From NCBI RefSeq assembly GCF_024223415.1, contig NZ_CP100500.1: DNA of 64,000 nucleotides; one strand, 5' to 3'. A program made the translations under genes and the position numbers. Below, one piece after another: positions 17,421 to 24,844 of this stretch. The notes under the pieces were generated by a model. The model saw only the letters and a list, made by a program, of their open reading frames with translations, did not search any database and was not told the origin of the DNA. Each line of letters opens with the position of its first letter. The first letter of the stretch is position 1. This DNA comes from Escherichia coli (GTDB lineage: Bacteria; Pseudomonadota; Gammaproteobacteria; Enterobacterales; Enterobacteriaceae).

Positions 17421-17820
17421 CCGATATAGATGGGGAAGATGCTTTTATCCGGATTGGATCTATCGCGATGGTGCGAGTACCACTTGATGCAATGGAGCCT
17501 GTCGAGGCAGATGACGAGTAACAGAGCTCGGTATCTCAATCAGGACCTGATTGTCCTGGTTCGATGCCGAAAACCAGTGATTTTTCGTGTTGGTATCTGT
17601 GTTGGTATAGGATGGTGTTGTTTATTATTAACAATTTTAAATCATGAGGTTAAATCGCATGTTTGAGTCAGGCCTTCGCATCAATATCAAAACAATCAAT
17701 AAATAAGTCCTTTAACCTAGCCACGACCAATCATTGATCAACCACGAAATCCTCTCCGAAACACAGTCCCAATCCCTAAACCCTACGCTCAACATCGAAA
17801 CCCGCTTATCACCATCCCCC

Positions 17821-18690
17821 TCATCCCCTGAACACCTCCCGCCGGTGCCACGCCACAAACCCCTCCTGGGGATAGCATTCTTTCCCCATCGGCAAGGTAA
17901 TCGGCTTACCATCAAAATCCCAGAACAACCTGCCAACGATGCCTCCGCCGTTCACCGCCGGCGAAACCTGGATGCGCATATCCTCATCCAGACCAATGGA
18001 TCCTTTATCAAAATCCTTATGGTGAATCGCGCAGAGCGCCAGGCCGTTAGGGATTTCGCAGGGGCCGCCGTGCTGCTTCCACTTGATATGGGCCGCTTCC
18101 AGGGCGACGGAGGTATTATCATGGCGCATATTGAAGCCGCAGATAGCGCACTCATAGTTATAGGCGCGCAGCACCTGCTGGCGAAAATGCGGGTCGCGCT
18201 CTTTGCGGATCTGCAGCAGATCAAACCCCATCTCTTCAGCCAGTTCTTCCTGAATACTCTCCGGAAAGTGCGCCTCAAGGATCTGATGGGCGAGGGTATT
18301 GATCAGCTTCTTATTTCTGTTAAGTAACGCAAAATGCTGCTCATCAAAGCCGCCGGCGACGTGGCAGAGCTCCAGCTCTTTGCCGGGCGGCTGTCGGCTG
18401 CCCTGGGTTGAGCACTGTTCGCTGTTGTGTAGCTCCCAGAAGCCGTCGCCTTTCAGGCGCCAGAAGGGCATGTCCGGCCGGTACTGGCGGCGCTGCGGGC
18501 CAAAGCGTTCCAGCAGGCTATGCAGCTCATCACGTATCTCCGAGGCGTAGTCGAACATCCGCGCATGGCCGCGCTGGTATTGCGAGAGGACGTACAGCAG
18601 CAATAGTGGTTTATGCGGCGCACGCTGTTCGCCTTTGCGCCAGATGGTGATGTTCTCGATCGCGTGTTGCAGGGTCGTGCTGGAGGGCAT
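17821..18690 (-). CDS. HNH endonuclease with an N-terminal putative modified-DNA-binding domain (candidate type IV restriction enzyme)
   Basis: 290 aa from the ATG at 18690; C-terminal HNH motif ...YNYECAICGFNMRHDNTSVALEAAHIKWKQHGGPCEIPNGLALCAIHHKDFDKG...; N-terminal about 170 aa (...APHKPLLLLYVLSQYQRG...FWRLKGDGFWEL...) recalled as resembling sulfur-binding-domain-HNH proteins. Confidence 0.6.
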   Translation of the reverse strand: MPSSTTLQHAIENITIWRKGEQRAPHKPLLLLYVLSQYQRGHARMFDYASEIRDELHSLLERFGPQRRQYRPDMPFWRLKGDGFWELHNSEQCSTQGSRQPPGKELELCHVAGGFDEQHFALLNRNKKLINTLAHQILEAHFPESIQEELAEEMGFDLLQIRKERDPHFRQQVLRAYNYECAICGFNMRHDNTSVALEAAHIKWKQHGGPCEIPNGLALCAIHHKDFDKGSIGLDEDMRIQVSPAVNGGGIVGRLFWDFDGKPITLPMGKECYPQEGFVAWHRREVFRG

Positions 18691-18869
18691 AGCGTTACAT
18701 TGGCAGCTAAATAAATGCGATGATGCTCGCAAAATCCTTGCCGATCAACCTACCAGATGCGGCGATTCTACGTGGATCGCGATTTAATTATCACTGCCAG
18801 TTATTTGTTCGAAAAGACCATAGCTTTCTATTTATACTCAAGCTTCGCGCCATCAGATAGCTATGTCTT

Positions 18870-19508
18870 ATGAAAAAACTACCGGACCATTTATCCAGGG
18901 AATGCATCATCGCCGCCATTCGCGCTTACGATGCAGGCGTTGCGCATCAGTTTAAAAGCGCGCGTCTGTATGAGATCGAGTTTGAGGGGCGTCGGTATCC
19001 TTCAAAAGCCATCGTCGGGTTAGCGGCCACGCTTGCGACGGGAACGGAATTTACCCCGGCGGATTTCAGCGGGGGGATTAAATCAAAATGCGTGCGTCTG
19101 TTACTGGAGCAAGGATTTACGATCGCGTCGCAGGGCGCTGGCGATGACGAGGTTGCGCTTTTCCCCGATGAGGGGCAGACGACCATGGAGTACGTGGAAG
19201 GGGCGGCGTTGCAGGTGGTGGTCAATCGCTATGAGCGCGACCGTCAGGCTCGTCAGGCGGCGCTTCGCCTGCATGGCTGCCAGTGTCAGGTATGCGGTCT
19301 GGATATGGCCAGCCGCTATGGCGATATCGGCCAGGGCTTTATCCATATCCACCATCTCATCCCGCTGGCCGGGATAAAGCAGGACTACCGCCTGAACCCT
19401 GAAACCGATCTGATCCCGGTATGTCCCAACTGCCATGCGATGCTGCACCGGCGAGATCCGCCGTTTACCCCCGAAGAGCTGAAGGCCCGGCTGCGCCCCA
19501 CAGACTGA
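18870..19508 (+). CDS. HNH endonuclease with a distinct N-terminal domain of unknown function
   Basis: 212 aa; C-terminal zinc-finger HNH ...CQCQVCGLDMASRYGDIGQGFIHIHHLIPLAG...PVCPNCHAMLH...; divergent from 17821..18690 across a 179-bp intergenic region. Confidence 0.6.
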   Translation: MKKLPDHLSRECIIAAIRAYDAGVAHQFKSARLYEIEFEGRRYPSKAIVGLAATLATGTEFTPADFSGGIKSKCVRLLLEQGFTIASQGAGDDEVALFPDEGQTTMEYVEGAALQVVVNRYERDRQARQAALRLHGCQCQVCGLDMASRYGDIGQGFIHIHHLIPLAGIKQDYRLNPETDLIPVCPNCHAMLHRRDPPFTPEELKARLRPTD

Positions 19509-19552
19509 CATCCGACAGCGCTCGCTTTAATTACATCAAACACACCACAAAC

Positions 19553-19579
19553 CCCACGCTACCTTACCGGTAGCGTGGG
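19553..19579. terminator. Bidirectional stem-loop between convergent genes
   Basis: CCCACGCTACC-TTAC-CGGTAGCGTGGG between the stop at 19508 and the minus-strand stop at 19591. Confidence 0.5.
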
Positions 19580-22783: not shown

Positions 22784-23194
22784 TCTAAGCAGACTCCGGT
22801 TTGTTTTGTGTAGGTGAAACACTTTCTGACACAGTTGACATGGAAGAATCTATTACGTTTTTAAATTAAGTAATTATGTTTTTTTACTTCTGTGATCCTC
22901 GAAGCAAAGGCCTGTATCACCTGCGTTGAGCCGCCATCCGCCGCTAATTTTTTGGCAGACAGGCAATGTGACAAAACCGGCATTTTAATTCGCTATGCCC
23001 ACCTGAATTCCCCAGGAAGTGTACTCTATACGCGCGCGAAGCGAGATATTTAAAATAGTTTTATTTGCGAGATGGCTCACATTTGAGCATTTTCTCAATC
23101 GCTGAGTGAAATAACGTAATTGAGCAACCGACGATGAGAATACACGATGTGTCACAGTTGTTAATTTTCGGCTTCCTCAATTTCGGAGTTCATC

Positions 23195-24514
23195 ATGCAA
23201 ACTTATTTTGACCAGCTCGAACGCGTTCTTTTTGCCGGACCTAAAACCGATAATCATCTGGCGTTTCGCCACTATAATCCGGATGAAATCGTGCTGGGAA
23301 AACGCATGGCAGATCATCTGCGTTTTGCCGCCTGTTATTGGCATAACTTCTGCTGGAATGGCGCGGATATGTTTGGCGCCGGCTCGTTTGAGCGTCCCTG
23401 GCAGGCCGCGGGCGATGCGCTGGAAATGGCCAAACGCAAAGCGGACGTGGCGTTTGAATTTTTCTACAAGCTCAACGTGCCGTATTACTGCTTCCACGAT
23501 GTCGACGTCTCGCCAGAAGGCGCGTCGCTGAAAGAATATCTGCACAATTTCGCCGTGATGACCGAGGTGCTGGCGGAGAAACAGCAGCAAACCGGCGTGA
23601 AACTGCTGTGGGGCACCGCCAACTGCTTTACCCACCCGCGCTACGGCGCCGGGGCGGCGACCAACCCCGATCCGGAGGTGTTTGCCTGGGCGGCCACGCA
23701 GGTGGTGACCGCCATGAACGCCACCCACCAGCTCGGCGGCGAAAACTATGTTCTGTGGGGCGGTCGCGAAGGTTACGAGTCCCTGCTGAATACCGACCTG
23801 CGTCAGGAGCGCGAGCAGATTGGCCGCTTCCTGCAGATGGTGGTGGAGCACAAGCATAAGATTGGCTTTGGCGGCACGCTGCTTATCGAGCCGAAACCGC
23901 AGGAGCCCACCAAGCATCAGTACGATTACGATGTCGCGACGGTGTATGGCTTCCTGAAGCAGTTTGGTCTGGAAAATGAGATCAAGGTGAACATTGAAGC
24001 CAACCACGCCACCCTAGCGGGGCACTCTTTCCACCATGAAATCGCCAGCGCCATCGCGCTGGGGATCTTCGGCTCCGTTGATGCCAACCGCGGCGATGCG
24101 CAGCTCGGCTGGGATACCGATCAGTTCCCGAACAGCGTGGAAGAAAATACCCTGGTGATGTACGAGATCCTCAAAGCCGGGGGATTCACCACCGGCGGCC
24201 TGAACTTTGACGCCAAAGTTCGCCGGCAGAGCACCGACAAATACGACATGTTCTATGGCCATATTGGCGCCATGGACGTGATGGCGCTGTCCCTCAAGTT
24301 GGCCGCGCGGATGATTGAGGATGGCAAGCTCGATCGGGCTCTGGCAAAACGCTATGCCGGCTGGCAGGGCGAACTGGGGCAGCAAATTATGGCCGGCCGT
24401 ATGTCGCTGGATAATATTGCCCGGTACGCTGAGCAGCATAATCTGAATCCGCAGCATCACAGCGGGCGTCAGGAATTACTCGAAAATCTCGTCAATACCT
24501 ATATCTTTGGTTAA
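23195..24514 (+). CDS. xylA: Xylose isomerase
   Basis: 439 aa; near-colinear with E. coli XylA as recalled ([11 protein letters not shown]...FRHYNPDE...WGGREGY...LIEPKPQEP...) but clearly diverged. Confidence 0.95.
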
Positions 24515-24523
24515 ATTTGGCTG

Positions 24524-24545
24524 ACATGCCCCTGCGGGGGCATGT
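24524..24545 (+). terminator. Stem-loop after xylA
   Basis: ACATGCCCC-TGC-GGGGGCATGT 10 bp after the xylA stop. Confidence 0.5.
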
Positions 24546-24844
24546 ATTCCGCCGTGTGCCCGCTGCCGGGAAATAGCGTTTATTTGTTCGTGTTGTATTT
24601 ATGCTGTCTGTGCCGAAAGGCTATCTGTTTGACTGTCTATAGAGGAACAATCCGCCGCGCGGATGGTTCTGCCATTGTGCCACCTTTTTAATATCAGTGA
24701 GGGAGGGCGAGTAGCGATAATTGTGTAATGCCTCTGTGACCGTACAAAATAAAAAATAATTTGTTCTGATGATAGCGACATATTCTGTCAGCTCAGAATA
24801 GGCTGGTTATTGTCTGAATAAAATTAACCTATATTGAGAAACTC

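Follow-up and report, generated by a model that had tools for sequence, protein, structure and literature searches.

A probable xylo-oligosaccharide utilisation module of Klebsiella pneumoniae type, with a second xylA gene, in a genomic island of Escherichia coli

Introduction

Klebsiella oxytoca reportedly carries a xylodextrin utilisation operon, xynTB (Qian et al. 2003, Appl Environ Microbiol 69:5957). Escherichia coli strains of the K-12 type are not known to use xylo-oligosaccharides. In E. coli K-12, the yagGH genes are regulated by XynR (YagI). A related set of genes has been described in K. pneumoniae Kp52.145, where xylA, xynT and xynB lie in the island GI-II, inserted at a leu-tRNA (Lery et al., PMC4068068). 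Here we analyzed a 64,000-nucleotide stretch of E. coli DNA (contig NZ_CP100500.1 of assembly GCF_024223415.1; hereafter the window), in which one block contains xynB, xynT and a divergent xylose isomerase gene, xylA2, a name given here to the isomerase paralogue clade of the module.

The block is likely to be a xylo-oligosaccharide (β-xyloside) module from the K. pneumoniae chromosome, which arrived in about 11 kb of Klebsiella DNA lying beside the tRNA-Leu island hot spot of the donor. The evidence comes from the families of the encoded proteins, the control region between the divergent genes, the distribution of the block among complete E. coli genomes, and its identity and gene order relative to K. 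pneumoniae.

Gene content of the module

The K. pneumoniae-derived DNA that includes the module (segment A, 17681..24984) consists of two endonuclease genes, xynB, xynT, xylA2 and the 5′ stub of a porin gene. Its homology to the K. pneumoniae records runs from 17680/17681 through 24984 at 96.5–97.4% identity. The xynT gene (21329..22768, minus strand) encodes a GPH-family xyloside:cation symporter (TIGR00792, 297.6 bits against a cut-off of 231), and xynB (19591..21270, minus strand) encodes a cytoplasmic GH43 β-xylosidase/α-L-arabinofuranosidase. The two genes lie on one strand, 58 bp apart, and a terminator-like hairpin (19553..19579, minus strand), with a stem of 11 pairs of which 8 are G-C and a weak T-tail, is found 12 nt past the xynB stop codon, giving the layout of an operon. 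All 23 of the Enterobacterales loci recovered have this xynT-xynB layout.

XynB contains the Pfam domains Glyco_hydro_43 (PF04616, 6e-89) and GH43_C2 (PF17851, 6e-54), and it matched the β-xylosidases 9he8, 1y7b, 3c2u and 2exh in the PDB with E values of 1e-162 to 1e-289. The motifs NADPS (D15), GFDAS (D128) and VEGPH (E188) are all present and conserved, and these three residues we take, following published work on XynB3 and SXA, to be the catalytic Asp/Asp/Glu. Because the catalytic domain starts at residue 4, there is no room for a signal peptide, which points to cytoplasmic action. XynB is 91% identical to the homologue of the K. oxytoca type strain, and a scan of one genome per species found 99% identity in K. 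pneumoniae ATCC 13883, with no other species representative above 91%. XynT is 95% identical to its K. oxytoca counterpart and 99% identical to the one in K. pneumoniae.

The xylA2 gene (23195..24514, plus strand) is divergent from xynT and encodes a class II xylose isomerase, scoring 706.7 bits with TIGR02630 (cut-off 533.25) and 782.1 bits with NF003998 (cut-off 459). The protein aligns with K-12 XylA without gaps, with 363 of 438 residues identical (83%), and it is 97–98% identical to K. pneumoniae XylA2. In a small XylA tree, the xylA2 clade comprised K. pneumoniae, Raoultella, Kluyvera georgiana and Citrobacter freundii, and was separate from a canonical clade of K-12, K. pneumoniae and E. 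hormaechei; the two paralogues of K. pneumoniae are 86.6% identical. The xylA beside xynT in Kluyvera intermedia (locus L010, 6744-8060) groups with canonical XylA (90–93%) and not with the xylA2 clade (85%), which suggests gene conversion or replacement between xylA paralogues.

Directly past the xylA2 stop codon is a perfect GC-rich hairpin, CATGCCCCTGCGGGGGCATG (24525-24544), followed by no T-tract. It is almost completely conserved in K. pneumoniae and Raoultella and is unlike the xylA/XylZ terminator region of K-12. The possibility that the XylZ small RNA region of K-12 is kept at the 3′ end of xylA2 was considered and is not claimed: the coding part aligns, but the downstream hairpin differs.

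The domain models, family models and coordinates agree with the original prediction, made from the sequence of the window, that a GH43 enzyme, a GPH symporter and xylA lie here, and the gap-free alignment at 83% bears out its description of a XylA colinear with that of E. coli but diverged. It had further stated that no xylB or xylFGHR follows xylA, and tblastn with K-12 XylB, XylF, XylG, XylH and XylR indeed found nothing in the whole 64 kb. The window thus has no xylB or xylFGHR of a canonical xylAB-xylFGHR locus, and the flanks of the block are island and Klebsiella genes.

Control region between xynT and xylA2

XylR sites have been described as about 37 bp long, with two direct repeats, beside the −35 region (PMC3561964). 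We searched with a pattern derived from four K-12 half-sites only (YVAAWWWHYDYAAT, 7 bases, and YVAAWWWHYDYAAT again, with at most 2 mismatches). Exactly two matches were present in the 64 kb, each facing its gene, where 0.01 was expected from shuffled sequences. The first XylR operator-like site (22852..22886, minus strand), two direct repeats with a 21-bp period, faces xynT. The second (23086..23120, plus strand) faces xylA2 and ends 75 bp before its ATG; it aligns with the IA site of K-12, the XylR site facing xylA, with one base different in the proximal repeat. Both ends of the intergenic region align with the xylF-xylA control region of K-12.

The site facing xynT is kept in every locus that includes the region upstream of xynT, that is, in 22 species representatives besides K. 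pneumoniae, about 85–120 bp upstream of the gene. Across 587 kb drawn from related and reference loci, matches were confined to the region upstream of xynT, the position of the divergent partner and canonical xylA-xylF regions, and none was off target.

A candidate CRP-like site stands beside each operator, both scored by eye. The one beside the xylA2 operator (23064..23084, plus strand) agrees with the consensus at 9 of the 10 core positions and can be aligned with the block TTTGCGAGCGAGCGCACACTT of the K-12 xylA promoter. The putative one beside the xynT operator (22888..22908, minus strand) has 7 of 10, within a block conserved across species as ...TTTG-N-GATCACAGAA. A scan for the sigma-70 consensus gave 3 promoter-like matches against 5.0 in shuffled sequences, an uninformative outcome of the kind expected for activator-dependent promoters.

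The module has no regulator gene of its own, so that, given the operator-like sites, it probably relies on the XylR and CRP of the host. XylR of E. coli and K. pneumoniae are 88% identical, with the C-terminal DNA-binding domain conserved. From the arrangement of these sites, host XylR with xylose, together with CRP, is predicted to drive both module promoters.

The module in other species

A divergent xylA2 beside xynT was found in K. pneumoniae, two Raoultella species, two Kluyvera species and one C. freundii, and was never followed by xylB. A canonical xylAB identity for the xylA next to xynT in other genera was ruled out, as none of the Enterobacterales loci has xylB following it. In several genera the module also comes with a related porin gene, whose position varies.

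Some relatives have only parts of the module. In K. oxytoca and K. michiganensis, the interval from ybgA to xynT holds porin fragments only, and short N-terminal remnants of xylA are found beside xynT in Enterobacter sp. 10-1 and R. terrigena. These porin and xylA remnants are located, in the numbering of the respective loci, at L006 7102-7389, L007 7618-8063, L017 7764-8062 and L018 7975-8058. The four-gene form (porin, xylA2, xynT, xynB) would accordingly appear ancestral in Klebsiella and Raoultella, and the xynTB of K. oxytoca a reduced form of it. Pantoea varia has a divergent XylR operator-like site with guaA upstream and no xyl gene beside it, and Pantoea brenneri has the same divergent site (Pantoea sites at L022 8163-8197 and L027 8160-8194). 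The Pantoea sites and the remnants beside xynT may be what is left of a lost xylA2, or else second sites retained for looping by XylR.

Beyond the Enterobacterales, XynB and XynT are 74–84% identical to those of Lactococcus, Streptococcus, Lachnospiraceae and Lactobacillaceae (loci L028-L084 compared with 19591-22768), whereas for XylA and XylB of the same Firmicutes loci the figures are about 47% and about 36%. This difference points to transfer of the xynTB pair between phyla.

Proposed pathway and competing functional readings

In the pathway that we propose, short xylodextrins would cross the outer membrane via the associated LamB-family porin and be brought in by XynT, and XynB, an exo-enzyme, would cut them to xylose in the cytoplasm. 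XylA2, along with native XylA, would convert xylose to xylulose. The phosphorylation of xylulose would then fall to host XylB, a dependence predicted from the lack of a kinase gene in the module. The freed xylose would load XylR which, with cyclic AMP-CRP, would induce both the module and the native xyl operons, making the module an add-on to the host xylose regulon. The family assignments are observed here, and the substrate range and physiology are those suggested by the work on K. oxytoca.

Several points weigh against reading the block as a working xylo-oligosaccharide module of K. pneumoniae origin. The module porin is broken and has been rebuilt as a chimera behind another operon, which may have changed outer-membrane uptake and its co-regulation. 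With native XylA present, XylA2 looks redundant, and the CRP-like site on the xynT side is weak. In addition, the E. coli copy differs by about 2.6% from three K. pneumoniae strains that are themselves only about 1.5% apart (98.4–98.6% identical), so that the donor is best described as K. pneumoniae-like.

The first two of these points also bear on a different reading, that the module is silent or decaying island cargo in E. coli, with xylA2 redundant and heading for loss. The disrupted porin gene, the presence of xylA in the host and the loss of parts in the relatives named above are in its favor. However, xynB, xynT and xylA2 are full-length and encode proteins 97–99% identical to those of K. 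pneumoniae, neither operator-like site is damaged, the rebuilt porin gene retains an open frame of 459 codons, and the copies in 11 complete E. coli genomes are 99.9–100% identical. We consider decay improbable on this evidence.

Slightly less probable again is that the module serves arabino-oligosaccharides or other pentosides, with XynB mainly an α-L-arabinofuranosidase and XylA2 preferring another aldose. The close structural relative 3c2u is annotated as a bifunctional xylosidase/arabinosidase, XynB has a weak NCBIfam match to arabinanase, and dual specificity of GH43 enzymes has been reported (PMC3847938). Nevertheless, most of the PDB matches, the best ones included, are named β-xylosidase, the operators are of XylR type, the isomerase scores above the equivalog cut-off for xylose isomerase, and no araA-like or AraC-related element is present.

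Distribution in E. coli and origin in Klebsiella

We return to the preferred reading, a xylo-oligosaccharide module from the K. pneumoniae chromosome, and to its origin. The 8 kb block was found at about 100% identity in 11 of 5,426 complete E. coli genomes (0.2%), with the same near-identity among copies noted above and identical junctions, in carriers from different hosts (chicken, human and frog). With xylA2 as the query, matches of at least 99% occurred in exactly the same 11 genomes, each of which has two xylA places; the other 5,398 matching E. coli genomes have native xylA only, at about 77% DNA identity to xylA2. As all 11 carriers also keep native xylA, xylA2 is a second copy in E. 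coli. In E. coli H8, the copy lies in an island between fimB/nan and the tRNA-Leu gene leuX, which fits the insertion of GI-II at leu-tRNA in K. pneumoniae Kp52.145.

The best matches outside E. coli were the K. pneumoniae chromosomal records CP125156 (5.37 Mb) and NZ_CP129856 (linear, 550 kb), with 96.5% identity over the block; the latter was counted as chromosomal because it has the same K. pneumoniae core genes as CP125156. Both records have the order variable island, endonuclease gene(s), GH43, GPH, xylA, carbohydrate porin, ybgA, DUF3833, hypothetical and DUF2878, leading to cusA. Over xynB-xynT, DNA identity was 97.3–97.4% to three K. pneumoniae strains, compared with 82% to K. oxytoca and 81% to Raoultella. 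K. pneumoniae 176 also has a canonical glyQ-yiaAB-xylBA-xylFGHR-bax locus, so that xylA2 is a second copy in the donor species too.

The composition of the block is consistent with this origin. Its GC content is 0.542 (17700-24984), against 0.434 (12000-15765), 0.469 (24985-30203) and 0.476 (34010-45000) around it. The GC content at third codon positions (GC3) is 0.69–0.78 for the module genes, which matches Klebsiella (0.62–0.79 for the xyl genes of K. pneumoniae) and not E. coli (0.44–0.58 for K-12 xylABFGHR). A second Klebsiella segment further right, described below as segment B, has a GC content of 0.615 and a GC3 of 0.77–0.86. Patchy distribution, a GC3 of 0.69–0.86, 97% identity to K. 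pneumoniae with synteny, and IS3 and recombination junctions at the borders together characterize the block as island cargo.

These results bear on most of what had been proposed for the block at the outset. Horizontal acquisition is upheld by the rarity of the block, its identity and synteny with K. pneumoniae and its Klebsiella-like GC3. Of the two origins named, Klebsiella-like and Enterobacter-like, the data favor the former, specifically K. pneumoniae, and the nearest relatives of XylA and the GH43 protein are likewise in K. pneumoniae rather than at the native E. coli xyl locus. The suggested second xylA copy is found in all the carriers, and it is a distinct paralogue that is also a second copy in the donor. 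A block richer in GC than its surroundings was correct for the module as a whole, and GC3 is not uniform with that of the K-12 xyl genes, but the adjoining IS3-family element on the left, at 0.51–0.53, is not poor in GC, and the xynT-xylA2 intergenic region is at 0.41. The proposed extent of 17500-24550 does contain the three genes; the acquired DNA is larger, reaching from 17681 to 34031 with an inserted cassette, and includes two endonuclease genes that had gone unmentioned.

We regard as nearly negligible the alternative that the block belongs to E. coli itself, as a native but diverged locus long polymorphic in the species, as its chromosomal location and its identical junctions in 11 complete genomes from different hosts might suggest: it is present in only 0.2% of complete genomes and away from the native xyl locus, its carriers keep native xylA at 77% DNA identity, it is 97% identical to K. 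pneumoniae with Klebsiella flanks (ybgA, DUF3833, DUF2878) in Klebsiella order, and its GC3 is far from that of the K-12 xyl genes, so distribution, identity, synteny and GC3 all contradict it.

Another xynT-xynB pair occurs on 108–164 kb plasmids of mouse-derived E. coli, with 85% DNA identity to the window, and one on a plasmid of Enterobacter cancerogenus has 87% (records NZ_CP019954.1, 60091-63449, and similar mouse plasmids, and NZ_CP082282.1). The plasmid-borne pairs in E. coli indicate that the function has been acquired by at least two routes.

A mosaic segment and a chimeric porin gene

Klebsiella-like DNA spans 17681-34031, ending inside the DUF2878 gene, and is broken at 24975-30663 by an E. 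coli cassette. The porin 5′ stub of the module (24845..24984, plus strand; about 47 codons, LamB-family) is fused in frame to the 3′ end of adeD, and up to 24984 the xylA-porin region is 99.8% identical to that of H8; the porin-adeD fusion forms an open reading frame at 24845-25156. This left junction, between about codon 47 of the module porin and the adeD 3′ end, is a 10-bp microhomology, CGCTGGCCGA, at 24975-24984.

The inserted β-glucoside phosphotransferase system (PTS) cassette (24975..30663, plus strand; 5.7 kb) is 99.3% identical to the adeD-uhpT accessory locus of 25 complete E. coli genomes. It consists of the adeD 3′ end, a yicS fragment, a lacI-family regulator gene (25389-26381, minus strand), genes for PTS IIB (26637-26951), PTS IIC (26965-28296), a GH1 6-phospho-β-glucosidase (28317-29714) and PTS IIA (29711-30013), and the 5′ third of a porin gene.

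The right junction lies within an intact chimeric LamB-family porin gene of 459 codons (30214..31593, plus strand; Pfam LamB PF02264), whose 5′ part comes from the E. coli cassette and whose 3′ part comes from the Klebsiella module. Informative sites are of E. coli type by 158 to 1 before 30600 and of Klebsiella type by 232 to 1 after 30720, and the two paralogous porin genes were joined by a homologous crossover that falls between 30663 and 30675. The gene is open throughout, and a signal sequence was judged by eye from MKKIKTLPVTLAVIAALYSISAQA. A score of 142.7 bits with the maltoporin subfamily model, against a cut-off of 394, indicates that the chimeric porin is not LamB itself.

Klebsiella segment B (30675..34031) follows, with the porin 3′ part, ybgA (31906-32865, minus strand), a DUF3833 gene (32862-33413, minus strand), a gene for a 174-aa protein (33410-33934, minus strand) and the 3′ end of the DUF2878 gene. 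As far as 34031, its identity to K. pneumoniae 176 and 2020S07-151 is 96.4–96.9%, and it has the K. pneumoniae gene order.

No complete E. coli genome in the collection was found to be identical to the whole window. The match to H8 is limited to 15765-24984 plus a more diverged right part; H8 has an unbroken module porin, but its right-hand Klebsiella DNA extends only to the equivalent of 33120. Both the H8 form and the form in the window probably descend from an older copy of the island. With the chimeric porin protein as a guide, the exact arrangement, from xynB through the S6 peptidase gene, was located in draft assemblies; at least 24 contigs from separate NCBI and SRA assemblies have it, and it is therefore real. 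That the Klebsiella DNA is there only through chimeric assembly or contamination of the source genome, which the lack of a complete match to the whole window could hint at, is hardly credible given those contigs, the 99.85% identity of the left part, IS3 junction included, to the complete H8 chromosome over 9.2 kb, and breakpoints that are clean recombination junctions.

A speculative extension, which we put forward tentatively and think rather unlikely to hold in full, is that paralogous porin genes act as recombination anchors that stitch sugar cassettes together inside a virulence island. The hybrid porin would be functional, and the Klebsiella module would be a regulator-less plug-in to the XylR regulon, giving certain avian and extra-intestinal E. 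coli lineages a niche on plant-fibre oligosaccharides.

Borders and neighboring genes

At the left edge of the Klebsiella segment is a divergent pair of defence-type nuclease genes (17821-19508). One (17821..18690, minus strand) encodes a phosphorothioated-DNA-binding restriction endonuclease of SBD-HNH type (NF045808, 438 bits against a cut-off of 180; PADLOC HNH and mREase_IV), with 99% protein identity to the gene of K. pneumoniae 2020S07-151. The other (18870..19508, plus strand) encodes an HNH endonuclease whose N-terminal region resembles type IV restriction enzymes (Pfam HNH, residues 139-195; PADLOC mREase_IV), with 97% protein identity to the genes of K. pneumoniae 176 and ATCC 13883. 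K. pneumoniae 176 has the HNH gene only and 2020S07-151 only the gene for the phosphorothioated-DNA endonuclease, whereas the E. coli copy has both. In E. coli H8, diverged full or partial copies of the nucleases (65–68% protein identity) are found at two other island borders (locus L001, 5319-6255 and 30745-31410, in the numbering of that locus), and these could have supplied homology for recombination.

The left border of the block is formed by an IS3-family insertion sequence (15765..17095, minus strand), whose transposase has a programmed frameshift according to the annotation of the 99.8% identical H8 region. The part of the window at 2009-17095 contains genes for a TonB-dependent receptor, a DsbD-family protein and a TRAP transporter amid IS66 and IS3 elements. 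A tRNA scan of the window found none, and an Rfam scan of the window found nothing in the module; its single match was an ALIL pseudoknot, an IS3-type frameshift signal, in an IS element at 10541-10657. Right after the Klebsiella DNA, the region 34010-45000, which is 97–99.8% identical to chromosomes of avian and extra-intestinal E. coli, has genes for a glycerophosphodiesterase, a ROK regulator, a YebF-like protein, an AbgT transporter and an S6-family (SPATE) autotransporter peptidase.

Significance

The system is already known in kind, being of xynTB type, its genes are already annotated in RefSeq, and its Klebsiella counterparts are in the literature; no account of this module in islands of E. 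coli turned up in our search of the literature. As the genes, pathway and regulator are of well-known kinds, the value of the case is that of a tidy example rather than a discovery. What is added is the operator evidence for a regulatory plug-in, the tracing of the block to Klebsiella chromosomal DNA that adjoins a tRNA-Leu hot spot, and a fusion, through porin genes, with another sugar cassette.

By the route of transfer that we infer, a slice of the Klebsiella core chromosome beside a tRNA-Leu site can be brought into E. coli within island DNA and is probably functional from the start, since the recipient XylR should recognise its operators and the host supplies the kinase. If the module is active, a few E. 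coli lineages could use xylo-oligosaccharides, a common dietary-fibre product and prebiotic.

Comparison with known systems

In E. coli K-12, yagGH, located in the CP4-6 prophage, and yicJI likewise each couple a GPH symporter to a cytoplasmic, pentoside-cleaving glycoside hydrolase, but XynT scores 196 bits with the YagG subfamily model, far under the cut-off of 610. The K-12 xylAB/xylFGHR locus also has a two-repeat XylR operator and a CRP-like site before each divergent unit, and its xylA-proximal 80 bp align base for base with the window. The module differs from it in lacking xylB, xylFGH and xylR, in having xynT-xynB as the transporter arm, in its location in an island rather than in the glyQ-bax interval, and in the distance between operator centres, which is about 234 bp in the window and about 159 bp in K-12.

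The K. oxytoca xynTB operon has the same two-gene core in the same order, GPH symporter and GH43 β-xylosidase, with the same XylR operator-like site upstream of xynT. To this core, the window, K. pneumoniae and Raoultella add the divergent xylA2 and a porin gene, whereas the K. oxytoca group has no xylA2, and the module of the window resides in an E. coli island instead of its native chromosome. The closest counterpart is the xynB-xynT-xylA-porin-ybgA locus of K. pneumoniae, which has the same content, order and orientation, with 96.5–97.4% identity in DNA and 97–99% in protein and matching endonucleases at the edge. The form in the window is distinguished from this locus by its E. coli host, by a porin gene split by the 5.7 kb cassette, and by an end inside the DUF2878 gene at 34031.

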